This document shows, one piece after another, positions 3,001-36,382 of a DNA stretch of 64,000 nucleotides. The stretch spans positions 1,675 to 65,674 of the forward strand of contig CAYQEU010000001.1 in the NCBI GenBank assembly GCA_964416765.1, in the 5' to 3' direction. The notes beneath the pieces are model-generated. The model had not been told where the DNA came from, ran no database searches, and worked only from the letters and a program-made list of their open reading frames with translations. The position numbers were made by a program, and so were the translations under genes. The stretch's first letter is position 1, and each line of letters opens with the position of its first letter. This stretch comes from an uncultured Candidatus Saccharibacteria bacterium (GTDB lineage Bacteria > Patescibacteriota > Doudnabacteria > UBA920).

Positions 3001-4370
3001 GTACTCAGGTTGGACACATTTGTATTGATGGCCCGTCCTCCGGCACTCCAAACAAGCTCCGCTTCTACGCCGAACAGTTCAACGCCACCTCCACTGACGT
3101 TGCAGAAAACTATTCCGATGCCACTAATTCCCTACAGCCAGGCGACTTGGTAATGCTCGACGCTTCTACTAAATATGGCGTAACTAAGGCAAATATTGGC
3201 ACCGGAAACCCGGTAATCGGTGTGGTCTCCACCTCACCTGGTATTGTCCTGACCGGTATTAGCGAGTCTGACCACAGCAGCGAATTGGTCAATCCAAAAC
3301 CAATTGCTCTGTCCGGGCGTGTCCCAGTTAAGGTATCCAATGAGAACGGCGCCATTAAGACCGGTGACTTCCTGACTGCTTCCTCAACTCCGGGTGTTGC
3401 CATGAAGGCAACCAAAGCCGGCCCCGTTATTGGCCAAGCCCTGGCAGACTTCAACGGTACTACCGGCACCATTGTGGTGTTCATTAAGGCCACTAACTAC
3501 AACGGCGCTGATATTCAGAATGAAATGCCAGGCCTGACCTTCCGCTATGCTGACCCAGTCCAGGCTGCCAACACTTCCTACGATATCCTCGGCCACCTCA
3601 TGGCCCAGCTACCGAACCTCAACCCAAATAACCTGTCCCAGGTTCATACCGATGTGGTTGTCGCGCGGGCTGAAGTAATCACCCCGACTGTTACCACCCA
3701 CACGCTGCGTACCGATTTGTTGTCCGCCGCGACTGCCCAAGGGGGATTGTCGGTCGCGTCGACAACCGTGTTCAACGGCGGGTTGAAGGTGGACTCAATT
3801 GGCTCCATCGGAACGATGCTGTCCATCCAGAGCGATGTCGAATTCTTTGGTATCCCGTACTTCACCAGCGATACCGCCGGGTTCGCCCTCATTAAGAGTG
3901 GAGTTCAAAGTGTGGACGTGGAATTTACCCACCCCTATGTGGCCCAGCCGATCATCAACGCGACTATCAGTTTCGAACAGGACATCAACCCTGACCTGAT
4001 CAATGACCCGAATGCCCAAGAGTCACTGAAGAACGCTGCCATAACTGATACCCAGGCATTCCTGCAGGCGGGGATTAGCTACGCCATTACCAACAAGAGC
4101 GCGCGTGGGTTTACGATTGTCCTCAATAAGCCAGCCCCAAGTGACATTAAGTTCAGCTGGATTTCCTTAGCCGTTCGGAACGCCATTACCTTCACTTCCA
4201 AAGATGCGCCCCAGCAAAGCCAGGCTACTCCTCCGGCTGACGGCCAGGCAGGTGGCGACACTACTACTCCGCCGGCAGGGGATGGCAGCGTTAGCGGTTC
4301 AGACCAGGGAGCAGACAGCACCACACCGCCTACCTCATCTTCTGATAATGGCAATGACTCCTCATCATAA
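1..4370 (+). CDS. Giant secreted surface protein, 5'-truncated by the window edge (at least 1431 aa). It has repeated GxGIGT..P..KL.V and 'RKLDVLDAS.PQLRL' motifs of the tail-fibre-domain kind, and a C-terminal Pro/Thr/Ser/Asp-rich low-complexity tail.
   Basis: The frame is open from nt 3 with no stop before 4370. Motifs occur at least four times (GSVGIGTLTPRRKLDVLDASNPQLRLTYTD, GGVGIGISSPGAVLAVEDG, GNIGIGTNNPGKKLSV, GGVGIGTNGPDRKLDVLDASSPQLRLTTTD). Thr/Ser/Gly/Asn content is very high. All overlapping minus-strand and frame-shifted ORFs look like low-complexity artifacts. Confidence 0.8.
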   Translation, partial: STNIGSSGTGDILLGGGSGSTGCTVVNSSGALACSASGDFGNYLSVAQSGATTTAGVLRVTTSTSTDFAPGIKNQYTETSTGSLTGVYGMQNFLSSSATVTGASVGQNLYGFYNSVSKSGADTATGTYNIYGNYNAVDNTGRTNVGTVNTYAGYFNAFGDTAGTSQAIGLYATASGADNNYAALFDQGSVGIGTLTPRRKLDVLDASNPQLRLTYTDNSVYTDLQTTSSGNLYINPTGGGVGIGISSPGAVLAVEDGTSSDQFRIGDQSGGNYYKIGRNTSTGFLDFTGTQSGFRGYLFNNPDNNFYVTNATGSNRIKSSTGTAAAVAGIELNNSSRGYSWYIDNRGSIDSPNDRFGIFNNAGTEVITALSGGNIGIGTNNPGKKLSVIKADNATDEIAQFYANNLTQGIGITYATISAIGSNTDQGINIVPKGAFGVGVGTTTVATNNMFSVNGSATIGAGSYNVAAPTSGLLVSGGVGIGTNGPDRKLDVLDASSPQLRLTTTDGTVYGDFQNTANANAILTGNTLASSSAIQYGLQVVPTVNQTSTAGYTALDVNVTETGVTNGPNLLADFRVGNSEKLSVRNDGSLTLHGNSNIITPFGGFGSFSNYLVRSEDFTTTWSVSSVTAPTADTQVAPDGSTTAESLATSGSGGSVTQDTSTAISSTTYTFSVWARSASGTQNFGLRIDGTSSGTGAEKTYTATTSWQRFYVTQAVGSFTGNVRVKIFPGTSSGTGTIYAWGAQLDNASVPSQYAKTTTAAINNPSNRGLLVNTNLTNTVSSGFLYGERHISTINSTTAGTHVGQFIRTIDNTSLDSGQVVRALEVQAFSGSNVNGTNTGIATFGYTFGIQATTTAQAASQAAPAAIFADLDNGTDSTTKARGNAIRAYTNDATSATLVQFYQETSAYTGTGLQMDFGNNSGSFNGNYADFLYQGSSKFQIAYSSSTGKLTQTYGATGSIIDYASATNGNTFVAKIPQKATSGTCASAAAEGFIYQNSGGTQVGHICIDGPSSGTPNKLRFYAEQFNATSTDVAENYSDATNSLQPGDLVMLDASTKYGVTKANIGTGNPVIGVVSTSPGIVLTGISESDHSSELVNPKPIALSGRVPVKVSNENGAIKTGDFLTASSTPGVAMKATKAGPVIGQALADFNGTTGTIVVFIKATNYNGADIQNEMPGLTFRYADPVQAANTSYDILGHLMAQLPNLNPNNLSQVHTDVVVARAEVITPTVTTHTLRTDLLSAATAQGGLSVASTTVFNGGLKVDSIGSIGTMLSIQSDVEFFGIPYFTSDTAGFALIKSGVQSVDVEFTHPYVAQPIINATISFEQDINPDLINDPNAQESLKNAAITDTQAFLQAGISYAITNKSARGFTIVLNKPAPSDIKFSWISLAVRNAITFTSKDAPQQSQATPPADGQAGGDTTTPPAGDGSVSGSDQGADSTTPPTSSSDNGNDSSS

Positions 4371-4488: not shown

Positions 4489-7400
4489 ATGAATATCAGC
4501 ATAGGAAAAGTCAGGCCAGGCTTTGGTACCAGAAAAACCTTCACTTTAGTGGGCGTTTTTCTGTTTTGTGCTTTGCTGGTATTCAATGGTTTTTTCCCCT
4601 CCAGCGGTGGAATTAAAAAAGCTCATGCGGCCCCGGTAACGATCACATTTTACTCGGATGATTACTGGCAGGTTCCTGCCGGTGTGACTTCCGTAACTAT
4701 TGATGCATGGGGCGGCGGCGGCGGCGGTAATTCCATCGGCCAAGGCGGTTACGGCGGAGGCGGCGGCGGTTACGCGCATGGTACTGTTAGCGTTACCCCT
4801 GGAAATTACTATGACATTATAGTCGGCCAAGGAGGGGTGGCGGGAGAAAAAAATGGCGGCGCGGGCGGCCCCACATATTTTGGTGGTGGTGACGTGGGTG
4901 CTACTGGCGGCGATGGCGGCCAGAGTGGTATTGGACCCGGAGTGGGGGGCAATATTTTTGCCGGTGATTTTGGGTACTCAGGCGGCCAAGGCGGTTACGG
5001 CGACCAATTCTTTTCCTTGTTAGGCGGCGGCGGTGGCGGTGGTGCTGGATCTTCCGGCGCCGGCAGTACCGGTGACGATGGTATAAATGGAGGTGCTGGA
5101 GGCGCCGGCGGCCCGTCTGAAGGCGGCCAAGGCGGTCACGGCGGCGACAGCAGAAGTGATGGCGAGCCGGGCTACAGCATAGGCGGGGGCGGTGGCGGTA
5201 GCGGAGATGGCTCCTTCCCGGGAGATGGGGCAGCTGGTCAACTTTGGGTTACCTATATTCCTCCTTTAATTTGTACTTCAATCACAAGCGGCTCTGGCAA
5301 CTGGAATAGCGCCAGCACTTGGACCAATTGTGGCGGCGGCACACCCGGCTCTAATGACACCGCGGTTATTGAGGGCACCGCGCAAATCACGGTCACTGCC
5401 AGCACCACGGTAAATAACTTACAGTTTGGTGACAATTCGACACCCGCGACAAACGCGGTGCTTAAAGTTAATAGTGGCCAAACTTTAACAGTTTCCAACA
5501 CCACTACAGTTTTCAGTGCCTCTAACAATAATGTCCAAGCCACCATCCAGGATGGTACCGGTAGCGGGACGGTATCCGGTGTTTATTTGGATATAGGATC
5601 ACCCGTAATTCCTGGTACAGGATCCCACGAAACTAAATTGATATCTTCAATTTCCAATTTTTCTCTGGCGGGAAGCACAACCATGCATGGGTATTCCGGT
5701 GTTTCAAGAGACAACGACCCAACTCTGGAAATACCTTCTGGTACTATGACGACTACCAGCCTAACTACAACTTTATCTGCTTCGTGGGTGACTGCTACTA
5801 TTTCAATGAACACGGGTGCCCAGACGGGAACCCTTAAACTGACCAGTAACCCCGCATGGTCCATAAGCGGTACAGGTACCACCAATCTGAACTTAGCAGG
5901 GACGGGCAACACGGTGGAGTATTCGGGCACAAATGCTTCCATACTCAACACGACTTACAAGAACCTCAAAGTAAGCGGTGCCCTGGGTACGACGGCACAG
6001 ACCGCTACTGTTGCAGGAGCCTTCACTGTTACGGGCAGCGGTAGCATGTCTCCAAGCTCGGGAACCATGACGTTTAACAACGGGGCTTCAATAAATAATT
6101 CCGGTACCCTTAATTTCTATAATCTATCAACTTCGGTATTTTCTTCCGTTAGCTCGAGCGGTAGCTTCGGGGTAGCTTCAGGCGGCACGTTTACCATTGG
6201 GGGAGCGAGCACGTTTACCCCGGCAGCAGGCGATGTTATTACCGGTACCTCTGCTACTATTACCGGAAGCGGCACGGCCAAGGTCACCCGTACCGCGGCG
6301 ACCGCTGATTTTAATACTCAATACAATTTTGGCACTAAGACCCTGACTAACTTAACCGTGGACTACGCGGGCAGCGGGCAATCGTTGAGCAATCTCACAT
6401 ACGGTGGACTAAAAGTGAGCGGATCCATTACGGGCGCCACCGCTACTGCAACTGTGGGCACTAACTTTAATGTTACGGGCACCTTCACGCCCAGCGCCGG
6501 CACGATTACCATGAGCGGCACGAGTTCCATTACGAATTCAGGCACACTTACGTTCATTAACTTAATCATCAATACTTTGGCGTCAGTGACCGGCAACACT
6601 AGCTTTGGTGTTTCAGGCACCTTTACGGAAAATTCTGGGGCCAGTTTCGCCGCGGCTTCAGGCACGCAAACATTTAACAACGGTTCGAGCATAGTAAAAA
6701 ACAGCACCCAGCTGCTTCAGTTTAATAATCTAACGGTGGCGGCATCTGGCACCATAACCGCTAACGTGGACATGAGCATTAATAGCGCCGTAACCGTACT
6801 TTCTTCCGGCACGTGGAATGCCACGGCGGGCACGGTTACCATGATGGATGGGTCATCAATTTCAAACGCGGGAACCCTGTCCTTCCAAAACCTGACCATA
6901 GGGGCAGGGGGGACAACTAATGTCACCGCCAACGCTAGCTACACTGTTAAGGGGGGTTGGACAATAAGTTCGAACGCTACGCTATCCTCCAGCTCCGGTA
7001 CAGTAACCTTAACCGCTTCTGGAACGCCTTTTGTCATGAGTGGCTCATTTTCCCCGTCAGGAACTAATACGGTTAAGTACGCGTCCAGCACGGGCGCTAC
7101 AGTGACCAGCAACATAAGTTACCAAAATCTCGACATTTCTCCCAGCAGCGGAACTCCGACTTTTTCGGTTGGCTTCTCCAATCTTAGCGTGGGGGGTGAT
7201 CTTACTCTAACAGGAACAGTCGCGACAACCTTCAATTTGAATAATATCGCATCTTACCTGGATGTTAACGGAAACGTGAGCATCAACTCTGGGAATACCT
7301 TGGTGGCTCCGCCGAGCTCCGCGATTTTCTATATTGGCGGGAATTATACCAATTCGGGGACATTGAACAACAATGTTGGAACCATTCAGTTTGACGCCGG

Positions 7401-10400
7401 TACTACCGGTAAAACCATAACTACCAATAACCAGTTTTTCAACAATTTAGTTTTCAATAACGCCTCGGGCGGTTGGACTTATACTCCAACCCTGTACATG
7501 TCCGGGACTTTGACTGTTACCGCTGGCACACTGTCCGGTACCGGTAACGTGGAGACCGATGGGGGCAACACCACGGGGAATGGAACAATCAACATAACTG
7601 GCGGAACCTTTTCGCAGTATGCCGGGGGCAGCTTTGGTGGCAATACCAACTGGACCTTTAATGACATCCAGTTCGGGGATGATATTTCCGAAATGCATGC
7701 CACCGGAACCGGAACCATAACAGCCCGCTCTATTAGCTCGCTTTATGAGTGGCACGCCGGCAGCAAGACTTGGATTATTACGGGTACCGGCACTCCGCTT
7801 ACCAACAACGGTACGTTTTTTGGTGAGAATAGCACATTCCAGTTTACAGGCAGCACTGTTACGGTACCGGTGTTCGCATATAATAACCTAACCTTGGGGG
7901 GGAGCGGGACTTACACCATGCCGGCCTCAACCCTTACGCTCACTGGAAACCTGACCGTGACCAACGGGGCGACGGTGACAAAGGGAGCAGGAACTGTAGT
8001 GTTCGGGGGATCCACGCCTCAGACCATAACTGACAACAGTGGTACCAAACAGGACTTAGGGGCTCTTCAAGTCTCCAACACTACGCAGCCGTGGTGCAAC
8101 ATTTCTTCCACAGTATGTAATTCTTCCTGGCTGAACCGACGCAAGATTACTTTTAATAACAGCGCTTCTTCCGCGAACCTTACCAACTTCCCGGTTTTGG
8201 TTCAGCTGACTTCCGCCAACATCGACTACAACAAGACCAAAGCCAACGGCGCGGACCTTCGTTTCGTTGATGCTGATGGCACTACAGCCTTGAGTTATCA
8301 GATTGAAACCTGGAATACATCGGGAACATCCAACATATGGGTGAGGGTACCTCAGGTTAATAACACCACGACCGACTATATCTACATGTACTATAACAAC
8401 ACTGGGGCGGTAGATAGCCAGGCGGCCACCAGTGTGTGGGACTCAAACTTCAAGGGAGTGTGGCATCTCCCGGATGGTGGTACTCTTTCCACTGCGGATT
8501 CCACGAGCAACGCTAATAACGGGACTAATCAGGGAAGTACCATTGCCGCTGCAGGCAAGATTGGTGGGGGAGCGAACTTCATCAATAGCGGCAGCGACCT
8601 CGCGATTTCCAATATCTCCGTTAGCGGGGTTGCTTATACCATCAGCACCTGGTTTAATACTCCTTTTGGTAATGCCGGCAGCTACACTACCTTAACCCGT
8701 GGCGCCGCTGGTGACCACCAGGTCTTAATAGACCCGAGTAATATTCTGGGGGTATTTGATTCCAGCACCGGTTTCTATAGCTCAGGGTTTAATGTCACGT
8801 CTCTTTCCAGCGGCTGGCATCACTTAACCGCGTCAGCTACCGGCAGTACTACAACTTTCTATATCGATGGGGTAAGTGTTGGTTCTTCCTTATTTAAATC
8901 CAATACCAACATTAGTTACTTGGGTAACTGTGGCGTGTGTTCTGGCCAACGGTGGGGTTTGGCTGACGAAATGCGCGTTTCCACCGGCATTGCCCGCGAT
9001 GCTAACTGGGCCAAGGCGGACTACCTTTCCGAAAGCAACCAGATGAATACTTTTGGAAGTGAAGAATCCTCCACTGCGGTCGGGGTTGCATTGGGTTCTT
9101 CCATTAAAGCTACATCGGTAACAGTGGATGCTACTCGAGTTCTCAGCGCCAACGGCTCTAATACCCTAACTCTGGTAGGAAACGGCGCATCGGTGTTCGT
9201 GGTAAATGGCACGTTTGTCCCTTCTACCGGCACGGTTGATTTTAGCTCAGCAAGCACAACAGGAACTACTGTACCGGGCACGACTTTTTATAACCTCACC
9301 TTAAACAAAGCTTCCAATAACTTTACCTCCGGCGGTTCCATGACCGTAGGCGGTACGTTGACCATTAGTGCCGGCACCTTTACCGCACCTTCAGGCACTC
9401 TGACATTGAACGGGGACTTAGTTAATAGTGGCACCTTTACTCACAACAGCGGCACGGTAGTATTCGCCCCGACCAATGCCTCACTAAGTTCCACAATTTC
9501 AGGTAGTTCAAACATCACATTTAACAATGTCAGTGATACAACTCCCGGTTCCAGCATAATTTTCAAAAATGGGAGTACGTTCATTTTCTCCGGCACCCTA
9601 ACCGCCACGGGCACGGCGCAAAACGCGGTTTGGTTGAAGAGCGCTTCCCCAGGATCACAATGGACCGTTACTTTTAGCTCGACCCCTAGCCTTACAAACG
9701 TATCCGTGCAAGACGGTGCTTGTAATGGCGGGTTAACTTTGGCGCAAAACCCTTCCCTGCATAATGAAGGACGCAATGGTTCCTGCTGGGGCTTTATAAT
9801 CTACACTGGCGGCGGCGGTGCTTCTGACGGTGGTTCTGGCAACACCGGCGGCGAATCCGGCGGCGGCGGCGGAAGCGGCGGCGGTACAACCATTTCATTT
9901 ACTTCAAGCGGCTCTTGGACCGCGCCTGAGGGCGTAACTTCTGTTATTGTGGAAGCCTGGGGCGGCGGGGCCGGTGCCGGCAGGGGTACTACCATAGGTG
10001 GTTCTGGCGGCGGCGGCGGAGCGTATTCTAAGAAAAATTCTATCAGTGTAACCGCAGGTACTACATACACCGTAACTGTTGGCACTGGCGGAGCAGGGTC
10101 CACGGGGGGCAATGCCCAGGCGGGCGGTGACTCCTGGTTCTCTACTTCCGGTACTATACTGGCTAAGGGAGGCACGGCTGGAGCAGATAATGGCGGAGCT
10201 GTTGGAACCGGGGGCGCGGCGGGAAGCGGTATTGGTGATGTTAAATTCTCTGGAGCCAACGGAGGGACGGGTTCCAGTATCATAGGCGGAGGCGGTGGTG
10301 GAGGAGGGGGAGCTGGAACCGGCACTAATGGTAATCCAGGGGACGATGGTGTTTCTGGCGGCGGCGGCGGCAAGGGCGGCGCACTAAATGGCGGCGCTGG

Positions 10401-11244
10401 CGGTGATGGTCAATTCGGTAGCACGGGAGGTGCTGGATCAGTCCGCGCCGGCGGCGGCGGTGGTGGACAAGGCGCGGGCAGTAACGGCGGCGCAGGAGCC
10501 CGTGGTGAGATTCGGATAACCTACACAGTCAGTGGCGGCTCGGGCGGAAGCTCAACGAGTGGAAATACAACTACATTTACTTCAACTGGCTCATGGACTG
10601 CGCCAGCAGGCGTAACCTCGGTTACCGTTGAAGCCTGGGGCGCGGGCGGTTCTTCAGCCAGTGGTTCCTCGGGCGGTGCCGGACGGGGCGGTGGCGGAGG
10701 AGGAGCATATTCGTCCGCTACTATTACCGTTACTCCTGGTAACCAGTATACGGTAACGGTTGGTACTGGCGGTGCTGGACGGTCATGCTGTAGTGTTTTG
10801 GGACAAGCTGGGGGAGATTCCTGGTTCGGAACTACCGGCACATTGTTGGCAAAAGGTGGCTCCGGCGGAGACTTTTCCGGTACTGGCGCCTCAGGCGGCG
10901 CTGCGGCAGCCGGTGTAGGAACAATTAAGTTCTCTGGCGGTGCCGGCGGAAACAGCGCTGACAACACAGCGTCCTTTGGTGGCGGTGGCGGTGGCGGAGC
11001 CGGTACAACCGCCAACGGCGGTAACGGCGGCAATTCTTCCGGTGTAAATACCGTAGGAGCTGCGGGAACAGGCGGCTCCCTTAACGGCGGTAATGGCGGA
11101 ATTGGCGGAACCGGGGCCGGTTCAGTAAGAGGCGGCGGCGGCGGAGGGGCAAATGGCGCAACCGACTCTGTTGCTGGCGGTCGTGGTGAAGTTAGGATTA
11201 CCATCAATGCCACCCAAGGCGGCGGCGGTGGGGGATCCCCATAA
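4489..11244 (+). CDS. Giant secreted/surface protein (2251 aa). It has an N-terminal signal/anchor, three copies of an extremely glycine-rich domain, many PATR-like Ser/Thr/Gly beta-strand repeats, and a central DUF2341-like plus LamG/concanavalin-like module.
   Basis: N-terminal hydrophobic segment RKTFTLVGVFLFCALLVF. Gly-rich domain consensus 'W.APAGVTSV.VEAWGGGG...GGGGGAYS...ITVTPG..YTVTVGTGG' occurs at about 4650-5260, 9886-10512 and 10567-11217. The DUF2341-like signature LRFVDADGTTALSYQIETWNTSGTSNIWVRVPQV...IYMYYNN is followed by a lectin-like beta-sandwich region. There are dozens of SGT/TGT-rich roughly 20-aa beta-solenoid repeats. Confidence 0.85.
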   Translation: MNISIGKVRPGFGTRKTFTLVGVFLFCALLVFNGFFPSSGGIKKAHAAPVTITFYSDDYWQVPAGVTSVTIDAWGGGGGGNSIGQGGYGGGGGGYAHGTVSVTPGNYYDIIVGQGGVAGEKNGGAGGPTYFGGGDVGATGGDGGQSGIGPGVGGNIFAGDFGYSGGQGGYGDQFFSLLGGGGGGGAGSSGAGSTGDDGINGGAGGAGGPSEGGQGGHGGDSRSDGEPGYSIGGGGGGSGDGSFPGDGAAGQLWVTYIPPLICTSITSGSGNWNSASTWTNCGGGTPGSNDTAVIEGTAQITVTASTTVNNLQFGDNSTPATNAVLKVNSGQTLTVSNTTTVFSASNNNVQATIQDGTGSGTVSGVYLDIGSPVIPGTGSHETKLISSISNFSLAGSTTMHGYSGVSRDNDPTLEIPSGTMTTTSLTTTLSASWVTATISMNTGAQTGTLKLTSNPAWSISGTGTTNLNLAGTGNTVEYSGTNASILNTTYKNLKVSGALGTTAQTATVAGAFTVTGSGSMSPSSGTMTFNNGASINNSGTLNFYNLSTSVFSSVSSSGSFGVASGGTFTIGGASTFTPAAGDVITGTSATITGSGTAKVTRTAATADFNTQYNFGTKTLTNLTVDYAGSGQSLSNLTYGGLKVSGSITGATATATVGTNFNVTGTFTPSAGTITMSGTSSITNSGTLTFINLIINTLASVTGNTSFGVSGTFTENSGASFAAASGTQTFNNGSSIVKNSTQLLQFNNLTVAASGTITANVDMSINSAVTVLSSGTWNATAGTVTMMDGSSISNAGTLSFQNLTIGAGGTTNVTANASYTVKGGWTISSNATLSSSSGTVTLTASGTPFVMSGSFSPSGTNTVKYASSTGATVTSNISYQNLDISPSSGTPTFSVGFSNLSVGGDLTLTGTVATTFNLNNIASYLDVNGNVSINSGNTLVAPPSSAIFYIGGNYTNSGTLNNNVGTIQFDAGTTGKTITTNNQFFNNLVFNNASGGWTYTPTLYMSGTLTVTAGTLSGTGNVETDGGNTTGNGTINITGGTFSQYAGGSFGGNTNWTFNDIQFGDDISEMHATGTGTITARSISSLYEWHAGSKTWIITGTGTPLTNNGTFFGENSTFQFTGSTVTVPVFAYNNLTLGGSGTYTMPASTLTLTGNLTVTNGATVTKGAGTVVFGGSTPQTITDNSGTKQDLGALQVSNTTQPWCNISSTVCNSSWLNRRKITFNNSASSANLTNFPVLVQLTSANIDYNKTKANGADLRFVDADGTTALSYQIETWNTSGTSNIWVRVPQVNNTTTDYIYMYYNNTGAVDSQAATSVWDSNFKGVWHLPDGGTLSTADSTSNANNGTNQGSTIAAAGKIGGGANFINSGSDLAISNISVSGVAYTISTWFNTPFGNAGSYTTLTRGAAGDHQVLIDPSNILGVFDSSTGFYSSGFNVTSLSSGWHHLTASATGSTTTFYIDGVSVGSSLFKSNTNISYLGNCGVCSGQRWGLADEMRVSTGIARDANWAKADYLSESNQMNTFGSEESSTAVGVALGSSIKATSVTVDATRVLSANGSNTLTLVGNGASVFVVNGTFVPSTGTVDFSSASTTGTTVPGTTFYNLTLNKASNNFTSGGSMTVGGTLTISAGTFTAPSGTLTLNGDLVNSGTFTHNSGTVVFAPTNASLSSTISGSSNITFNNVSDTTPGSSIIFKNGSTFIFSGTLTATGTAQNAVWLKSASPGSQWTVTFSSTPSLTNVSVQDGACNGGLTLAQNPSLHNEGRNGSCWGFIIYTGGGGASDGGSGNTGGESGGGGGSGGGTTISFTSSGSWTAPEGVTSVIVEAWGGGAGAGRGTTIGGSGGGGGAYSKKNSISVTAGTTYTVTVGTGGAGSTGGNAQAGGDSWFSTSGTILAKGGTAGADNGGAVGTGGAAGSGIGDVKFSGANGGTGSSIIGGGGGGGGGAGTGTNGNPGDDGVSGGGGGKGGALNGGAGGDGQFGSTGGAGSVRAGGGGGGQGAGSNGGAGARGEIRITYTVSGGSGGSSTSGNTTTFTSTGSWTAPAGVTSVTVEAWGAGGSSASGSSGGAGRGGGGGGAYSSATITVTPGNQYTVTVGTGGAGRSCCSVLGQAGGDSWFGTTGTLLAKGGSGGDFSGTGASGGAAAAGVGTIKFSGGAGGNSADNTASFGGGGGGGAGTTANGGNGGNSSGVNTVGAAGTGGSLNGGNGGIGGTGAGSVRGGGGGGANGATDSVAGGRGEVRITINATQGGGGGGSP
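9886..11217 (+). repeat. Intragenic tandem duplication (two copies of about 630 nt, at 9886-10512 and 10567-11217) encoding the glycine-rich domain. A third, more diverged copy lies at about 4650-5260.
   Basis: DNA- and protein-level similarity is visible, e.g. TSSGSWTAPEGVTSVIVEAWGGGAG versus TSTGSWTAPAGVTSVTVEAWGAGGS, and both copies end ...RGE(I/V)RIT. Confidence 0.8.
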
Positions 11245-17484: not shown

Positions 17485-17985
17485 TTACCAGGCGCAGGAA
17501 GTGGGATCGCTGCACGCCATCCATGCCGTGGTCGGACGGACGGGATCATAAAATAGTTCAGTAGAAGAGGGGAACGTTTCCGGCCCCACGTCGCTTAAAA
17601 TCAATTTATATCTCAGGCCATCGGATTTGTAGTTATAGCCGGACCATCCTGTGGTTACGCCCAACGGGTCGGTGGGTAAGGTGCTCAAGTAAGTTGGTGT
17701 CAGGCCAGGAATGTATGCGTTGACACCGCTTGTAGTATGTCCACCACCGTTGGCGGAAGTGCCCCACCATTGGCTGCTGGTGCTTGGATATCCGTAGTTG
17801 GCGGTGTAGTAATTTTCCAACGCGGTTTTTAGTTGGGTTAAGTCTGCCTTGCGCTTAGTATCTCGTGAGGTTTTTCTTGCGCTGGCCAGTGAGGCAACCA
17901 TAATGCTGGCCAGTAACCCGATGATGCCAATTACCACCATCAACTCAATCAAACTAAAACCCTTTTGTCTCTTAAGTGTTATCAT
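17485..17985 (-). CDS. Type IV pilin-like protein (prepilin-type N-terminal cleavage/methylation domain).
   Basis: N-terminus MITLKRQKGFSLIELMVVIGIIGLLASI with a class III signal (G|FSLIE). The C-terminal region is globular and Cys-containing. Confidence 0.85.
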   Translation of the reverse strand: MITLKRQKGFSLIELMVVIGIIGLLASIMVASLASARKTSRDTKRKADLTQLKTALENYYTANYGYPSTSSQWWGTSANGGGHTTSGVNAYIPGLTPTYLSTLPTDPLGVTTGWSGYNYKSDGLRYKLILSDVGPETFPSSTELFYDPVRPTTAWMACSDPTSCAW

Positions 17986-18266
17986 GGGTTTTTCTCCAGC
18001 TTCGGGGGCTCACCGGGCGTATTGGTCATGTGGTAGCCAGCCGGGGGAGTGTAGTTAGCGGGGTTAGTCGTGGTTTTGGTGTATTCACGAATGAAATAAC
18101 CTAGTGCAGCCAGTGACGCAATGACAAATATGATAGCACCTGCCATTTTTAGGGTCGGATGCGCTGATTCAACTCGTTTAGGCGCTGGAGCTTGTTTGTT
18201 ATTTTGGTTTCCGGGGAAGAAACCACTGAAATCAACACCTTCTTCACTTTTGGGGTTTTGGGCCAT
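17982..18266 (-). CDS. Small membrane protein (94 aa) with an N-terminal EEGVDFSGFF motif. It pairs with the pilin gene (ATGA overlap) and is a paralog of 27583..27867.
   Basis: Single TM segment AGAIIFVIASLAALGYFI, and a 4-nt overlap with the downstream pilin start. Confidence 0.6.
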   Translation of the reverse strand: MAQNPKSEEGVDFSGFFPGNQNNKQAPAPKRVESAHPTLKMAGAIIFVIASLAALGYFIREYTKTTTNPANYTPPAGYHMTNTPGEPPKLEKNP

Positions 18267-25176: not shown

Positions 25177-25676
25177 AACGGGTTGTCGCGGAGCTTTAAT
25201 AGGTAACCAGCATAAGCCAGAATAGGTTGGATCAGCAAAGTAACTATTAATCCTACAGCGGCTATCGGCAACTGTTCCTTGCCCAGAGTTACAAAAACTA
25301 TTCCGGTTACAATTATGGAATCGCCGTGGTCTATGATTGGGACATACTTTCCCCGAGGAACGCCAAACCGCCTTTTGATGAAAGCTCCGCAGGCATGACC
25401 CAGGTATACCGTTAGCCCTTTAAGCGCGCCCAAAGCCGGGCTGGTTATGAATGATTCTATAAGCATGCCGGAAAGAATTGCGACCGGCAAACCAACCCAG
25501 GTAGTAGAAACTCCCAGCAGTCGGTACCCGTCTCCCAGAGTGTAGCCGAGGTCAAGCGGCGCGTCGTATTTAAGGAGTGCGGGACGGCGTAATTTGAGCA
25601 GGTACCATAAATTCAGCGCAATATTAATGCACCAACAGGGAATTGTATACAGGAGTACATGGTATAGCTCCGTCAT
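25173..25676 (-). CDS. CDP-archaeol synthase-like (CarS/DUF46 family) integral membrane cytidylyltransferase homolog.
   Basis: DLGYTLGDGYRLLGVSTTWVGLPVAILSG resembles the CarS 'D.G..L.DG.RLLGD.KTWRG' signature, and about five TM helices fit a CarS-family protein. The start codon overlaps the upstream stop by 1 nt. Confidence 0.5.
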   Translation of the reverse strand: MTELYHVLLYTIPCWCINIALNLWYLLKLRRPALLKYDAPLDLGYTLGDGYRLLGVSTTWVGLPVAILSGMLIESFITSPALGALKGLTVYLGHACGAFIKRRFGVPRGKYVPIIDHGDSIIVTGIVFVTLGKEQLPIAAVGLIVTLLIQPILAYAGYLLKLRDNPL

Positions 25677-27088
25677 TAAGACTTGATTTCCAGGTCGCTG
25701 ATGAAAAAGTTTTGCAGACCGGAACTCAGGAAATATTGTTCGACGACATTAACTTCGCGGGGCCAGCATTGCGGAAAGGCAAGCTCGACTTGGTATCGGT
25801 ACAAGCCATGGTCGGACCCGAGTTCCTTTATGGAGTTGAACATTTCCTTTACGGTTGCCGTCTGGAACTGCTCAAAGGTGGAAAGTACAAAGTTAAACCG
25901 GGTGCGGCTGCCATGGGTCATGCAAGTTTCGCCGGGTACGGTGACCGGTTGGAAGTTATCAAGCAAACCCTGCTCATTCAGAATTTGTCCCACAGTAGTG
26001 GGCTGACCAGGAAGGTAGGAATATATGGTCATGTTGCCAATTATTTTAACAGGTTTGTAAGCTGGGTCGTGCGGGTCATGGAACATTCCGACCAGTGCGC
26101 CTTCATCACCAATTGCCTGATGACGGTAGCTGGCCAGCGATAAATCAGCTGAGAGGGGATAATAAAACATCAAGGCGATGAAAATTCCACACAATAGGGC
26201 CGGCCGGTTTACAGCCTTGCCCCAGCTTACGTAGACCAAAGCCATCATGGCAAAAGCGTAGAGGCAGATTAGGTAAAGCTGGAAGGAAAAATCGGAAAAG
26301 CCGGAATACATTCCAAGCCAGTAGCAAACTACAACAAGCGCGGCGTAAAACAAGGCCCAGAGTAGGATAGCGTTCTTGAGCCAGGGTTTGCCACGAAAAA
26401 TCAGGTAAACGAATAGCGGTATACTGACTGCCGCTTCGTGGGTAAATGGCCCGCCATCAACTATGTTTTTTACAATACTGAAAGTAACAATAGCGAAAAT
26501 GAGCCCGTAAAGACGTGGGAATTTTTCCTGCTGCCACGTCGCGAGGAACTGCCAGGCTAGCAGATAGAGGATTGCTATTATTAAGATAATTCCAACCCAG
26601 GCCACCCAGTCGGGGACCAGCCCTACGAAAGCGTAACCAGTATCAATATTTTCCTGGCTGGCTTTGTGAGTGAAAGAAAGAATTGTGCCGGAAACAACTT
26701 TGAAAGTGTGATTATGGAGCAACTTGGTGCTTGAAAGCTCCCCGTGGTTTTCAGCAATTACGTAGTCCTGGTAGCTAAAACCGTAGTGGTGATAGAACCA
26801 GACAAAACTCCCAATATTGAGCAGAAAAGACAACAACACGGCCCCGACTAAGACGTTTTTCCAGCGGGCCTTAATTTTGGGCAGCGCTATTTTAAGATTT
26901 ACCGCCAGCAGAATAAGTAAAAGGTAGGCGAGGAATAGCACTACCTTGGTGAAGCTTCGCCCACCGGCGAAAATATTTATGAGTGAATGGAGGAAAAGGA
27001 AAACGTAGTCTGACCAGACGATAAGTCCGGCTAGTATTATGACGGCGGCAATGCCGCCCCAGCGCTTAAAGAGAGAGCCCAAAGCCAT
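25676..27088 (-). CDS. Large polytopic membrane protein (470 aa, about 10 TM segments plus a C-terminal soluble domain of about 140 aa), possibly a GT-C-like or ligase-like enzyme; function unknown.
   Basis: Hydrophobicity pattern. Translationally coupled to the pilin gene (23-nt overlap). Confidence 0.6.
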   Translation of the reverse strand: MALGSLFKRWGGIAAVIILAGLIVWSDYVFLFLHSLINIFAGGRSFTKVVLFLAYLLLILLAVNLKIALPKIKARWKNVLVGAVLLSFLLNIGSFVWFYHHYGFSYQDYVIAENHGELSSTKLLHNHTFKVVSGTILSFTHKASQENIDTGYAFVGLVPDWVAWVGIILIIAILYLLAWQFLATWQQEKFPRLYGLIFAIVTFSIVKNIVDGGPFTHEAAVSIPLFVYLIFRGKPWLKNAILLWALFYAALVVVCYWLGMYSGFSDFSFQLYLICLYAFAMMALVYVSWGKAVNRPALLCGIFIALMFYYPLSADLSLASYRHQAIGDEGALVGMFHDPHDPAYKPVKIIGNMTIYSYLPGQPTTVGQILNEQGLLDNFQPVTVPGETCMTHGSRTRFNFVLSTFEQFQTATVKEMFNSIKELGSDHGLYRYQVELAFPQCWPREVNVVEQYFLSSGLQNFFISDLEIKS

Positions 27089-27596
27089 GATTTTCTCCCC
27101 ATTTGGCTTGGCCAGACTCCAGATGCTCTGCCCAAAGTTGGTACATGTAGTTTAGTTCGGTAGTTCCCAAGCCGCACCCTATTCTGTTGCACCAATCGGA
27201 CATAGCACTTGGGGGTACGTATCCATATACATAGTAGTAATTGTCGTCGCCAGCGCAATTGATGCCACAAGGGTCCTTAGAGATATTTTTGGCATATGGC
27301 GATAGGTCAGTGGCCAAAAATTTCCACTGGTCAGAATAATCATAAATAGTCGAACAAGTGCCCGGGTTTTCTGCCTTACAGTCGTACTTTCCGGCATACG
27401 GAGCATGGTCTTTATCTATAGTGTATGCCTGGATGGCGGTGTCAATTTGTTTAATATCTGCTTTACGTTTGGCGTCACGAGCCAGTTTCCTTGCGGTACT
27501 GACTGATGTCAACACGATGCTGGCCAACAGTCCAATAATGGCAATCACAACGAGCAGTTCGATTAAAGTAAAACCAGCTTGTCTATTTTTGCGCAT
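27066..27596 (-). CDS. Type IV pilin-like protein (prepilin-type N-terminal domain), Cys-rich C-terminal domain.
   Basis: MRKNRQAGFTLIELLVVIAIIGLLASI N-terminus, then several Cys residues. Confidence 0.85.
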   Translation of the reverse strand: MRKNRQAGFTLIELLVVIAIIGLLASIVLTSVSTARKLARDAKRKADIKQIDTAIQAYTIDKDHAPYAGKYDCKAENPGTCSTIYDYSDQWKFLATDLSPYAKNISKDPCGINCAGDDNYYYVYGYVPPSAMSDWCNRIGCGLGTTELNYMYQLWAEHLESGQAKWGENHGFGLSL

Positions 27597-27867
27597 TGGT
27601 ATTTAGGTTTACATTTTTTACTACCCCATGAATGTTTATCTTAGTGGTGGTTTTTTTGGGGGCAGGAGGGGTAGGACGACTCACATACAAAATTATAATC
27701 TGGACGATAGTCAAAACCGCCAGGACGATGGCAAGAATCAGGATTCTTCGGGGAATGCGCTTGATTCGCGATGGCGGTGTCATAGGGATTTGGGGTGTGG
27801 TTGGTTGCTCTACTTGGAAGTGGCTAAAGTCTAAGCCCTCTTCTTCTTGAGGTTGTTCCAAAGGCAT
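27583..27867 (-). CDS. Small membrane protein (94 aa) with an EEGLDFSHF motif; paralog of 17982..18266, overlapping the pilin start by 14 nt.
   Basis: MPLEQPQEEEGLDFSHFQ... and TM segment ILILAIVLAVLTIVQIIILYV. Confidence 0.6.
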   Translation of the reverse strand: MPLEQPQEEEGLDFSHFQVEQPTTPQIPMTPPSRIKRIPRRILILAIVLAVLTIVQIIILYVSRPTPPAPKKTTTKINIHGVVKNVNLNTNAQK

Positions 27868-27968
27868 GTGCTTATTTTACCATAGTTTAATGCCTTTTGC
27901 CTGTAATTTGGCCAATATAGTGCTATTATTATGTTATGGAAATAGGAACCCCCACAACTAAGAGAAGA

Positions 27969-28553
27969 ATGTCTGAGAGAGGGTTTACCCTTATTGAATT
28001 GCTAATGGTCATAGCCATCATAGGCTTGCTGGCTTCCATTACTTTAACCAGCGTGACCGCGGTACGGGACAAAGCCCGAGACACCAGACGAGTGACCGAC
28101 GTGAAGCAGCTAGCGGGTGCCGTAGAACTTTATCGACTGGCCAATGGCACGTATCCAGTGGCCGCTGTTCCGACACTATCCATACCGGGAGTTTCCCCGA
28201 CGTACGTTAGTTCTATTCCCGCGGCTCCAGTGCCGCCGGCCCGGAACTGTACCTCTTCCCAAAACCAATATTTGTACCAATCTGACGGAACCAATTATGG
28301 AATCCAGTTTTGCATCGGGGGAAATGTGGGAAGTATCGGATCGGGTGTGGGGGTTATGTCAGACAAAGGAGCAGGTTTGCGTTATGACGTAAACGGCGAT
28401 GGGGTTGTAGACAATAATGACCCAAATTATATTGCACAATACGTTGTGCTTTTAGTAAACAGTTGCCCGCTATACCTATGTGATATCAGCGGCGATGGCG
28501 TAGTTACCGCACAGGACGCCGCGCTCTTGGCACAGATTATTGCGGGATCCTAA
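27969..28553 (+). CDS. Type IV pilin-like protein with two C-terminal dockerin-like calcium-binding repeats.
   Basis: MSERG|FTLIELLMVIAIIGLLASI, where the in-frame ATG at 27936 is an alternative start. C-terminal DVNGDGVVDNNDPNYIAQYV and DISGDGVVTAQDAALLAQII match the dockerin repeat pattern D.NGDG.V...D. Confidence 0.8.
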   Translation: MSERGFTLIELLMVIAIIGLLASITLTSVTAVRDKARDTRRVTDVKQLAGAVELYRLANGTYPVAAVPTLSIPGVSPTYVSSIPAAPVPPARNCTSSQNQYLYQSDGTNYGIQFCIGGNVGSIGSGVGVMSDKGAGLRYDVNGDGVVDNNDPNYIAQYVVLLVNSCPLYLCDISGDGVVTAQDAALLAQIIAGS

Positions 28554-28573: not shown

Positions 28574-28597
28574 AAACCGGCCAAGGGGCCGGTTTTA
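28574..28597. terminator. Bidirectional intrinsic terminator AAACCGGCC-AAGG-GGCCGGTTTT.
   Basis: Perfect 9-bp stem with flanking A- and T-runs, lying between the pilin gene (plus) and tRNA-Glu (minus). Confidence 0.75.
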
Positions 28598-28601
28598 TAG
28601 T

Positions 28602-28676
28602 TGGTAGCGCTACGGGGAATCGAACCCCGATTTGATGGATGAAAACCATCTGTCCTAACCATTAGACGATAGCGCC
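28602..28676 (-). tRNA. tRNA-Glu (anticodon UUC), CCA encoded.
   Basis: Hand-folded cloverleaf: acceptor GGCGCTA/TAGCGCT with a G-U at 1:72, D-arm GTCT-AATGGTTA-GGAC, anticodon stem GATGG/CCATC with loop TTTTCAT, T-arm CGGGG-TTCGATT-CCCCG. Confidence 0.85.
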
Positions 28677-33814: not shown

Positions 33815-36382
33815 ATGACAAGTAAATACTTCAAGCACGTCAGCCGTGTCCTGCTGGTTGCAGCGGTTGTTTTTTCGTGTTCAGGGGTTGTTGCCCCGCA
33901 GAGCAGCCATGCTGAGGACTTATTGCCGCGCGTTGTGGTGCGCGACCAGGCTATCCCAACACCACAGTACTACAACACTCCCAACGTGCCTCCGGGACAG
34001 AACGGGGGATCGGTTTATAAAACCCTGATCGCCGCTGACGGCACTATTTACTTGGCTGGAAATTTCGCGTTCGTCTCCGGACAAGACCGCCACAACCTGG
34101 CTGCCTTGTCGGCTGACGGCACTCTTTTGAGCTGGAACCCCAACGCGGATGGCGGAGTGTACACCATGGCCATGGACGGTAGTACTATATATATCGGCGG
34201 CGACTTTTCTCATATCGGCACCACAGCCAAAAACATGATCGCCGCTATCTCTACCAATGGGCAGTTAACTTCCTGGGCTCCGGCCCTCCCGGAAGGATAC
34301 GCTGTCGCTGGTATAGTGGTGGGAGCCAACTCGGTTTATGTCATGACTTCGCCGGGGCCGGATTATTACGGCGACCCAAATTCAGCGGTTGAGTCAGTAT
34401 TTGCTTTCGATAAAACATCGGGGGCCAAACAGTGGTCGGTAACTACCGACGGCTTTGCCATTAACGGAGCGTTAAAGGACAGCACGCTGTATGTGTCCGG
34501 AATATTCACCAAACTTGGCGGACAAGACCGCTCCGGTTTGGGGGCGATTAACGTCAGTAGTGGTCAGGTGACCTCCTGGAACCCAAACCCCAGCAACGCC
34601 CACCCAGAGTATTCGTATAATCTCGTGCAGGCGCTGACTCTTTCGGGAAACACTTTGTACGTGGGAGGAAGCTTCTCTTCCATTGCCAACCAATCCCGTT
34701 CTTACATTGCCTCGTTCGACGCCAGTACCGGCAACCTTACAAACTGGAACCCACAAGTGAGCTTTGGTTACGTTAATGAATCACCATCCATAATGTCTAT
34801 GGCCGTTGATGCTAACGGCAAGCTATATGTTGGCGGCAGCTTTGGTGATGACAACCATTCTTCTTTCTATAACTTATTTATTCTTGACCAGAACGGCATG
34901 GAATATTACTGGCCTATCGACATGGAAGCGAACGCGGATAACGGCTATTACGCCCCAGCGCTCGCCAACGTCGCGATTAGCGGCCATTACATGTATGCCA
35001 GTTCATATAATGACTTCGCCCGCTATGACCTGAACAGCCCCGTGCCTATGACCACAGTTAAGCCGGTATATCCTGGGCCTATTCCGCCTCCTGTCGTGCT
35101 GCCTCCGAACGTCCACGCGGGACAATTGCTAAAATTCAAGAGCAACAACGCGGTTTATCTAGTAGAACCGGAAGGGCTGTACCCGTTCCGCAACTACTAC
35201 TCCTTCCAGCTATACCAAGGCGCCAGCAATGAAAAAATCACCAACATAAATAATGTTATTGACCCATACACGGTTACTACGGCATATGGTTACTCTTCTG
35301 CCGATGAATATTTGGGCCAGTATATTCCCGCGGGACAGCCTTATGTGCCCGGCACTTTGGTTAATTCCAAAGGCACGGTATTCCTCATAATGGTAGGGGA
35401 GCAGATCCCGTTCCGGAACAAGGAATCCTTCCTGGGCCTTGGTTATTCCTTTGCCGATGTCATCAACGCCGACTTAACCAACTCAGGACTTACCCAGACT
35501 CCTGGCATATATACGGATAAAGTTCCACACACATGGGGCACATGGTTAAACTATAACGGCACGATTTACTATTCGGATGAAACCGGCATGATCGGTGTTC
35601 CTGACTGGAGCACTTTCCTTTCTAACCACGGTTTGCCGCAAATGATCAAACAAATGAACCAGTACGACCTCGATGTCTACTTCCAGGACCCGAACCAGCC
35701 AGTACTGCGCTACGCTGACCCGCGGGTAGCTTTGTCTCCAAACGACCCGCCGTATGACCCGGCCACTTACCGCGACCAGACCCGGGTTTATGACATCTAC
35801 AATATTCAGTATGCGCTTGAAGATTATTACTATGCGAATAACAGCCAGTACCCAGCCACCCTCAATGATTTAGTACCGGGCTACATTGGCGAACTGCCGG
35901 TGGCTCCAACCCCGGCTGACGGTTCCTGTACCGCCGACCAGAATACCTATAAGTACGTGCGTACGGACTCTTCCAACGTCGCGTTGACATTCTGTCTTGG
36001 TGCCGCGGTTGATAAGTATGTGGCGGGAGTAAATACTGACCACAGCCCTACCGCGGCCGACCACCGCGACATTACCCGCATAAATGATATTTACCAGCTG
36101 GATTCCGCCATTGAAAACTATCGCTATGACCACAGCAATAAGTACCCGAGCGCGTTATCTGACCTGACCCCTGCCTACATAGGGCAACTTCCAGTGGCGC
36201 CAACTCCGGCTGACGGCACTTGCAGCGCGCAACAAAATACCTACGCCTACCAAAAGCTAACCGATACTACCTTTAAGATGACTTTTTGTTTAGGCGGTAG
36301 TTACACTGGATACAGTGCGGGGTTCCGTACCATTGACCAGACGGGCCAAATTGATGGCGGCCCCGTTGGTCCCACTTATTAA
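33815..36382 (+). CDS. Secreted 855-aa protein: an N-terminal delta-60-repeat-type beta-propeller, then middle domains, then two tandem C-terminal pilin-headgroup-like domains.
   Basis: Signal peptide. Propeller repeats GNFAFVSGQDRHNLAALSADGTLLSWNPN, GDFSHIGTTAKNMIAAISTNGQLTSWAP, GIFTKLGGQDRSGLGAINVSSGQVTSWNPN, GSFSSIANQSRSYIASFDASTGNLTNWNPQ. The two C-terminal repeats of about 85 aa (R..D.Y.I..A.E.Y...N..YP..L.DL.P.YIG.LPVAPTPADG.C...QNTY.Y......FCLG) align with the globular domain of the dockerin-pilin at 27969..28553. Confidence 0.8.
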   Translation: MTSKYFKHVSRVLLVAAVVFSCSGVVAPQSSHAEDLLPRVVVRDQAIPTPQYYNTPNVPPGQNGGSVYKTLIAADGTIYLAGNFAFVSGQDRHNLAALSADGTLLSWNPNADGGVYTMAMDGSTIYIGGDFSHIGTTAKNMIAAISTNGQLTSWAPALPEGYAVAGIVVGANSVYVMTSPGPDYYGDPNSAVESVFAFDKTSGAKQWSVTTDGFAINGALKDSTLYVSGIFTKLGGQDRSGLGAINVSSGQVTSWNPNPSNAHPEYSYNLVQALTLSGNTLYVGGSFSSIANQSRSYIASFDASTGNLTNWNPQVSFGYVNESPSIMSMAVDANGKLYVGGSFGDDNHSSFYNLFILDQNGMEYYWPIDMEANADNGYYAPALANVAISGHYMYASSYNDFARYDLNSPVPMTTVKPVYPGPIPPPVVLPPNVHAGQLLKFKSNNAVYLVEPEGLYPFRNYYSFQLYQGASNEKITNINNVIDPYTVTTAYGYSSADEYLGQYIPAGQPYVPGTLVNSKGTVFLIMVGEQIPFRNKESFLGLGYSFADVINADLTNSGLTQTPGIYTDKVPHTWGTWLNYNGTIYYSDETGMIGVPDWSTFLSNHGLPQMIKQMNQYDLDVYFQDPNQPVLRYADPRVALSPNDPPYDPATYRDQTRVYDIYNIQYALEDYYYANNSQYPATLNDLVPGYIGELPVAPTPADGSCTADQNTYKYVRTDSSNVALTFCLGAAVDKYVAGVNTDHSPTAADHRDITRINDIYQLDSAIENYRYDHSNKYPSALSDLTPAYIGQLPVAPTPADGTCSAQQNTYAYQKLTDTTFKMTFCLGGSYTGYSAGFRTIDQTGQIDGGPVGPTY

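Follow-up and report, generated by a model that had tools for sequence, protein, structure and literature searches.

The pilin-dockerin gene and its product

A gene for a type IV pilin with a type I dockerin at its C-terminus was examined in a 64,000 nt stretch of DNA from an uncultured Candidatus Saccharibacteria bacterium (Patescibacteriota; Doudnabacteria; UBA920), positions 1,675 to 65,674 of contig CAYQEU010000001.1 (assembly GCA_964416765.1). The whole of this stretch is referred to as the window and all positions are counted from its first nucleotide. The gene had been picked out in an earlier note, made from the sequence alone, which described a prepilin ending in two dockerin-like repeats at 27969-28553; the sequence has an ATG at 27969 and a TAA at 28551-28553, in agreement with this. 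Its features are as follows:

27969..28553, plus strand: pilin-dockerin coding sequence, 194 amino acids (aa) and the TAA stop codon (28551-28553), read from the sequence
27969..27983, plus strand: class III leader peptide MSERG with Gly(-1) at its end (G/FTLIE; N_methyl and TIGR02532 above their cut-offs)
27984..28046, plus strand: first half of the pilin helix, hydrophobic and N-terminal, FTLIELLMVIAIIGLLASITL, including Glu5 (profiles, AlphaFold2 helix, alignment to GspG, geopilin and PilA4 structures)
28047..28379, plus strand: pilin globular head, aa 27-137, comprising the rest of the long helix and the beta-sheet, with Cys94/Cys115 (model strands, Foldseek, pilin family)
28380..28550, plus strand: C-terminal dockerin module, aa 138-194 (Pfam, PDB sequence matches, predicted fold, ratio of non-synonymous to synonymous change, pN/pS)
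28386..28421, plus strand: predicted calcium loop 1, DVNGDGVVDNND, aa 140-151 (ligand positions invariant in seven full-length relatives)
28464..28481, plus strand: linker between the repeats with the Cys pair C166...C171 (CPLYLC; both Cys invariant in alignments of seven and eight sequences)
28482..28517, plus strand: predicted calcium loop 2, DISGDGVVTAQD, aa 172-183 (D172, G177 and D183 invariant)

An identical 194 aa product is called as a gene on Logan assemblies, and the identical protein is on record from both NCBI and Logan, the longest contig that carries it being 681,337 bp.

The N-terminus is that of a prepilin, MSERG/FTLIE, with Phe(+1), Glu(+5) and a run of about 21 hydrophobic residues after it. 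The N_methyl profile (PF07963) scored 29.4 bits against a gathering score of 21.2 and the NCBIfam model TIGR02532 scored 34.2 bits against a cut-off of 16.3, and a prepilin peptidase would be expected to cut after the Gly(-1) of MSERG. The segment FTLIELLMVIAIIGLLASITL which follows is the membrane anchor and filament core. By sequence the N-terminal part aligns with the structures of GspG, geopilin, PilA4 and PilE; the best NCBIfam match, the GspG equivalog, covers the N-terminal 60 residues only, with a score under its cut-off. A model of the protein was built with AlphaFold2 from an alignment of 81 sequences and had a mean predicted local distance difference test (pLDDT) score of 92.3 and a predicted template modelling (TM) score of 0.81, with no segment below a pLDDT of 50. 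It predicts a lollipop fold made up of a helix (8-59) and five strands (65-69, 102-105, 110-116, 126-131 and 134-137), with pLDDT of 93-98 in the head, where the Cys94/Cys115 pair is conserved. When the non-dockerin remainder of the model was compared to the PDB with Foldseek, it matched the major pseudopilins EpsG and PulG, and also PilA4 and the gonococcal pilin PilE. The protein thus has, from its sequence and its predicted structure, both the class III signal and the lollipop fold by which type IV pilins are recognised.

The two 22-residue segments quoted in the earlier note are present exactly, DVNGDGVVDNNDPNYIAQYVVL as aa 140-161 and DISGDGVVTAQDAALLAQIIAG as aa 172-193. They stand in tandem, each consisting of a 12-residue calcium loop (oxygen donors at positions 1, 3, 5, 9 and 12) and then a helix. 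The Pfam search which the note had proposed as a check gave a Dockerin_1 (PF00404) match of 33.7 bits against a gathering score of 22.9 (E=4.2e-08), extending over aa 139-190 and profile positions 2-55 of 57. The C-terminal 63 aa also match solved dockerins by sequence (4fl4_A, 4dh2_B and 2y3n_B, E ~1e-4) with both repeats aligned. Structure prediction of the same end, likewise proposed beforehand, returned a dockerin fold with helices at 150-159, 168-171 and 181-193, a pLDDT of about 81-91 and a root-mean-square deviation of 1.5-2.2 A on solved type I dockerins. The top Foldseek matches in the PDB were 4dh2_B, 4uyq_B, 3ul4_B, 5nrk_B and 1ohz_B, which are dockerins from cohesin-dockerin complexes; these fits extend over 54-62 columns with a target-normalised TM score of 0.65-0.77 and a probability of 0.99-1.00, the E-values being modest (~0.02) because the module is short. 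Profile, sequence and model therefore identify the 57-residue module as a type I dockerin fold with two EF-hand-like predicted calcium loops, and it joins the head without a flexible linker. The two linker cysteines, C166 and C171, would be expected to form a disulfide.

Positions 17-18 are among those at which cellulosomal dockerins contact cohesin. Here an Ala-Gln pair (A17-Q18) is read at these positions in both helices and is retained in close relatives, a repetition which hints at a symmetric interface and is not evidence of one.

Conservation and selection

In loop 1, residues D140, N142, D144, G145, D148, N150 and D151 are invariant in 7/7 full-length relatives, and all of its calcium-ligand positions (D140, N142, D144, D148 and D151) are unchanged down to 48% identity, as are C166 and C171. 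In loop 2, positions 3 and 5 are limited to S/N/T and D/N, respectively. An orthologue on metagenome contig L089 has 92% amino acid identity to the window protein, and 57% of third codon positions differ. Between these two genes pN is 0.038 and pS 0.86 in the dockerin, compared to 0.063 and 0.82 in the pilin, and the resulting pN/pS of about 0.04 for the dockerin indicates strong purifying selection on the module, no weaker than on the pilin. Profile, sequence, predicted fold and conservation agree, and the description of the protein as a type IV pilin fused to a dockerin is upheld.

That the architecture is an artefact, produced by chimeric assembly, by read-through or by an EF-hand-like motif arising by chance, is effectively refuted. 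Nothing was found in favour of this, and the same layout occurs in independent assemblies from several samples, the frame is preserved with synonymous sites near saturation, the Pfam score is above the gathering threshold and the fold prediction is confident.

Distribution of the architecture

A word-index search returned 577 homologues, nearly all of them Patescibacteria pilins of 130-220 aa, whose annotations read "type II secretion system protein G" or "prepilin-type N-terminal cleavage/methylation domain". The whole query is covered by the top six only (P0001-P0006, 92-48% identity), and a precomputed Dockerin_1 match exists for P0001-P0003 and P0006. Hundreds of Patescibacteria pilins of about 140 aa have the same head and stop at the dockerin boundary; in the alignment they terminate 2-3 residues ahead of the RYD motif which opens the dockerin, so the dockerin has been added to a pilin that was already complete, almost without a linker.

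An exhaustive profile search of 1.84 billion cluster representatives yielded about nine clusters at 50% identity with the full layout of a pilin and a dockerin-like module (P0005, P0006, P0122-P0126, P0130 and P0152). Among them P0123 and P0124 pass the Dockerin_1 threshold, P0125 falls below it, and P0122 has a long Ser/Gly linker from head to module. In the same search, many proteins of 340-740 aa had this head joined to C-terminal modules of other kinds, so this pilin family appears to be a habitual carrier of grafted modules. In species-representative genomes the full-length profile recovered ordinary pilins, with no match past residue 141 among the best 80 loci. The architecture is present in independent assemblies from several samples, which include SRR11845619, SRR11845633, SRR14234124 and SRR25436014 as well as WBZR01, GCA_034680565.1, ERZ27275549 and others. 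It is real but rare.

A scan of metagenome contigs with a profile of the dockerin end found one pilin-dockerin locus of this type, that on L089, in which the gene is almost the same as that of the window. An open reading frame (ORF) on L090 lacks a pilin N-terminus. The other loci in the scan were unrelated dockerins or small membrane proteins in which the loop occurs once. When the 63 aa module alone was used in a word-index search, a single fragment (P0121) was returned, which was uninformative.

The small membrane proteins form a family of their own of about 150-175 aa (stop-to-stop ORFs of 164-198 aa), seen on contigs L100, L105, L107, L110, L114, L117, L120, L127, L135 and L141. At the end of each there is a stretch rich in Pro/Glu, then a poly-Asp tract and one loop, RYD[VI]NGDGVVD[EQ]NDFPDWR, almost the same as loop 1 of the pilin dockerin, and the second repeat is absent.

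Start codon and flanking sequences

Two further features flank the coding sequence:

27936..27968, plus strand: candidate leader extension MEIGTPTTKRR (11 codons) or conserved 5' untranslated region (ATG conservation weighed against codon pattern)
28574..28597, no strand assigned: GC-rich hairpin CCGGCC-AAGG-GGCCGG with an A run and a T run at its flanks, as seen in the sequence itself

The reading frame extends upstream to another ATG, at 27936, use of which would give an alternative leader of 16 aa. This ATG is kept in the two related contigs L089 and L142, and L142 has ATA where the window has its ATG at 27969, so that positions 27936..27968 could possibly be an N-terminal leader extension of 11 codons. 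Counter to this, there are no third-position changes across the 33 nt which separate the two ATGs, compared to 57% in the gene body, and the segment may alternatively be a conserved 5' untranslated region with the purine-rich TAAGAGAAGA directly before the ATG at 27969. Translation may start at either 27936 or 27969, and the mature pilin is identical in both cases. The region 27868-27968, which takes in the intergenic sequence and the 33 nt between the ATGs, has about 90% nucleotide identity among the window, L089 and L142. It could represent a conserved element, either regulatory or part of a 5' leader, in overlap with the possible coding extension. The hairpin sits between the pilin stop codon and a convergent tRNA-Glu gene (28602..28676, minus strand) and is a probable terminator from its sequence; a consensus terminator scanner did not flag it.

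Genomic surroundings

The window is an ordinary chromosomal stretch encoding UvrA, UvrC, DnaK, EF-P, ribosomal protein S6, SSB, TrpRS and RNase J, together with an ECF sigma factor that has DUF5667 and DUF5666 neighbours. Among named relatives of the UvrA protein, the best matches are from Candidatus Doudnabacteria and "Patescibacteria group", with 79-83% identity. The minus strand of the window has two more pilin genes, 17485..17985 and 27066..27596. Directly upstream of each, and overlapping it, is a gene for a single-pass membrane protein of 94 aa (~17982-18266 and 27583-27867, minus strand); these two proteins are paralogous, lack any Pfam match and have in common the acidic motif EEGxDFSxF near the N-terminus. 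On L142 the same 94 aa gene lies divergently beside the pilin-dockerin gene. These could be pilin-associated accessory proteins.

The start of a polytopic membrane protein of 470 aa without a Pfam match (25676-27088, minus strand) overlaps the end of the pilin gene 27066..27596, a position which recalls, by analogy, that of the glycosyltransferases which modify pilins and whose genes follow the pilin genes downstream in other bacteria. Downstream of these two in the operon is a CarS-like protein of the CDP-archaeol synthase family (PF01864; 25173-25676, minus strand). The pilin head domain recurs at 33815-36382 (plus strand), in a secreted protein of 855 aa with a beta-propeller (DUF5122/PQQ_2) and no pilin N-terminal helix, the C-terminus of which consists of two tandem pilin head domains (aa ~660-746 and ~758-851). 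Many relatives of 600-740 aa with this layout were seen in the representative search.

Comparison with known systems

The InterPro entry IPR002105 is taken here to be the dockerin type I repeat. The pilin-dockerin has the N-terminal IPR012902 motif together with an extra domain which is not pilus-specific, and in this it conforms to the definition of modular pilins, by which effector modules are displayed on pili (Raynaud et al. 2021, PMC8179133). Examples are PilB of Streptococcus sanguinis, a pilin with a vWA module, and PilC, a pilin with a lectin module (PMC8179133). Among the 1,219 proteins in the InterPro survey of that study, the architecture "IPR012902 - IPR002105 - IPR002105" was listed for two and "IPR012902 - IPR002105" for one, without discussion, and many of the examples in the survey came from candidate phyla (PMC8179133). 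The pilin-dockerin resembles these proteins in having a small N-terminal pilin and a C-terminal functional module joined by a very short connection, and differs in that the module is a dockerin of 57 residues whereas theirs are bulky adhesin domains. It belongs to the established modular pilin class and is rare in it. The earlier note had called the fusion unusual, which holds in the sense of rarity (six of 577 homologues, about nine clusters) but not in the sense of being unprecedented. No paper describing a pilin-dockerin fusion was found in full-text searches on dockerin together with pilin.

The module shares with the type I dockerins of cellulosomes (Clostridium thermocellum Xyn10B, 1OHZ_B, and Cel48S, 2MTE; Acetivibrio cellulolyticus ScaB, 4UYP_B) the duplicated 22-residue segment, the 12-residue loop with D/N at positions 1, 3, 5, 9 and 12 followed by a helix, and a C-terminal location on an exported protein. 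The carrier, however, is a pilin, whereas theirs is an enzyme or a scaffoldin, and the contact positions hold N-N and A-Q where those dockerins have S-T and K-R. The conserved Cys pair in the linker, the source organism (a Patescibacterium) and the lack of any cohesin found nearby, in the 64-kb window, are further differences. No plant-cell-wall-degrading enzymes were noted among the Pfam annotations of the window.

A survey of non-cellulosomal dockerins was reportedly made by Peer et al. in 2009. Dockerins of this type are carried by the giant ORFs of Omnitrophota (PMC10066038; bioRxiv 10.1101/2023.11.21.568195), where they have been proposed to be adhesins (PMC10066038), and SEML1_0315 of the Saccharibacterium Southlakia epibionticum is an essential envelope protein with a dockerin domain (PMC10633639). 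These are likewise Dockerin_1 domains on surface proteins of host-dependent bacteria without a cellulosome, but theirs are large, multi-domain or poly-dockerin proteins, whereas here a single dockerin is present on a fibre subunit. In enterotoxigenic Escherichia coli (ETEC), the pilus-tip minor pilin CofB recruits another protein, CofJ, to the fibre (discussed in PMC8179133). Recruitment by a pilin is also the function proposed here, although the domains that recruit in CofB-CofJ are a beta-repeat and a beta-sandwich and not calcium-binding dockerins.

Proposed function and the search for a partner

It is proposed that the pilin-dockerin would be cleaved by a prepilin peptidase after Gly(-1) and that its N-terminal helix would then polymerise it into a type IV pilus, or that it would be a minor pilin at the tip. 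In pilus structures the pilin head has its C-terminus at the fibre surface, and since the head C-terminus faces outward, the calcium-loaded dockerin would be displayed on the fibre. There it could act in calcium-dependent protein-protein docking or adhesion, holding a cohesin-like partner on the pilus or fastening the pilus to a protein on the host cell surface, and attachment of this kind would serve the role of pili in episymbiotic Patescibacteria. The partner is possibly not a canonical cohesin. Probably the module is displayed on pili and serves, in a calcium-dependent manner, in protein binding or adhesion, and the proposal as a whole, a bimodular pilin that would display its dockerin on a type IV pilus for calcium-dependent docking or adhesion, is put forward with moderate confidence. 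It is consistent with the logic of a carrier and an effector in PilB of S. sanguinis, with the adhesin proposals for non-cellulosomal dockerins and with the role of type IV pili in Saccharibacteria, where they mediate host association (PMC9894109).

Several observations weigh against this proposal, and the first of these is that no partner was found. Among the ORFs of at least 150 aa in the window, no match to Pfam Cohesin (PF00963) was obtained at E<=0.01, and ten further, mostly unannotated ORFs, including the putative surface proteins of 1,431 aa and 2,251 aa, gave none at E<=10. The contigs which carry P0002-P0006 (L001, L084-L086 and L142/L143) have no partner gene in common with the window locus; the neighbours that they share with it are pilins and, in the close relative L142, also the upstream 94 aa gene. 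The suggestion in the earlier note that the pili dock cohesin-bearing proteins or host-derived structures is thus unsupported by these searches, but not refuted, and cohesin docking by the pilin-dockerin is unproven.

In addition, P0125 scored under the Dockerin_1 threshold and P0122, P0126, P0130 and P0152 gave no Dockerin_1 detection, their sequences having drifted chiefly in the second loop, and with loop 2 degenerate in several of the more distant members, the classical two-site binding of cohesin may not be conserved. The representative search also returned P0128, P0131 and P0161, which are proteins of 2,175-2,796 aa with 8-22 tandem Dockerin_1 domains and no cohesin (one of the three has an N-terminal peptidoglycan-binding domain as well), from which it follows that the fold may be a general calcium-binding building block in such organisms. 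Lastly, no pilus assembly genes, such as those for a prepilin peptidase or for the assembly ATPase and platform, were found among the window ORFs of at least 150 aa, so that incorporation into a fibre is inferred only. Look-ups with the proteins at the window ends, which reach a few kb beyond it, found neither a cohesin nor pilus machinery.

Two other sets of proteins were noted in the course of this search. The adjacent giant ORFs 75-4370 (plus strand; 1,431 aa, no Pfam match) and 4489-11244 (plus strand; 2,251 aa, Gly_rich_2 and DUF2341) probably encode surface proteins, in which cohesin-like domains invisible to sequence profiles are possible. On metagenome contig L097, positions 559-1305 encode a small secreted protein with a beta-rich domain followed by a dockerin, the linker of which also has Cys (GASCTPLLDVNGDGVCN); this may be a cohesin and dockerin protein of an unrelated organism.

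Alternative explanations

The main rival to display on the pilus for docking or adhesion is that the dockerin would be a structural calcium cap or switch without an external partner, stabilising the pilin C-terminus or tuning pilus assembly and retraction. In the GspG major pseudopilins and in PilY1, components of type IV filaments, calcium is bound in a C-terminal region exposed at the surface, and the module would then be comparable to the calcium site that is essential in GspG and to the EF-hand-like one in PilY1. The likeness lies in the predicted C-terminal calcium binding and in the head, which is GspG-like; the difference is that theirs are single loops within a domain, whereas here a module with two loops is appended. 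A cap would fit the pattern of conservation, in which loop 1 and the Cys pair are best conserved while loop 2 and the helix surfaces, the putative binding parts, drift in distant members, and also the lack of a cohesin in the window ORFs and the poly-dockerin giants, which suggest a calcium-binding brick. Hundreds of homologous pilins, however, function without the module, so the head needs no dockerin for its stability. A full dockerin of 57 residues and two helices also exceeds the needs of a calcium site, and the A-Q pair at the same positions of both helices in close relatives speaks against a cap. This explanation is considered possible but rather unlikely.

It is also possible that the protein is no part of a pilus and that its class III signal serves only to export and anchor a dockerin protein at the membrane or surface, as with the sugar-binding proteins with a class III signal in the Sulfolobus "bindosome", or that it is a pseudopilin of a secretion system. 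The failure to find pilus assembly genes in the window ORFs is consistent with this, as are the best NCBIfam match, to the N-terminal part of GspG and below the cut-off, and the 855 aa window protein, which reuses the head domain outside a pilin context. On the other hand, the small pilin that is common in Patescibacteria belongs to this head family, the protein keeps Glu5 and a complete hydrophobic helix as filament packing requires, and a close homologue without a dockerin, on contig L004, adjoins a putative prepilin peptidase gene (identified by eye from the ORF translation). A role outside the pilus is therefore regarded as improbable.

An extension of the docking proposal is that the pilus itself would be a scaffold, an "inverted cellulosome". 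If the pilin-dockerin made up most of the fibre, or were frequent in it, dockerins would form a long polyvalent array which could capture cohesin-like proteins, either secreted enzymes of the bacterium itself or surface proteins of the host. This would be a previously undescribed form of extracellular complex assembly or host latching, built on a retractable filament, and is offered as speculation of low probability.

Significance

Other cells are indispensable to Patescibacteria, and few of their structures besides type IV pili have been tied experimentally to host attachment. The source of the binding specificity of these pili is largely unknown, and the pilin-dockerin is a concrete and testable candidate. 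The module is small and confidently predicted and should express easily, so that pull-downs or cohesin arrays could reveal a partner. If there is no such partner, the protein would be one more case of the documented diversity of modular pilins, and if there is one, the chemistry of cohesin and dockerin would extend from cellulosomes to retractable fibres.

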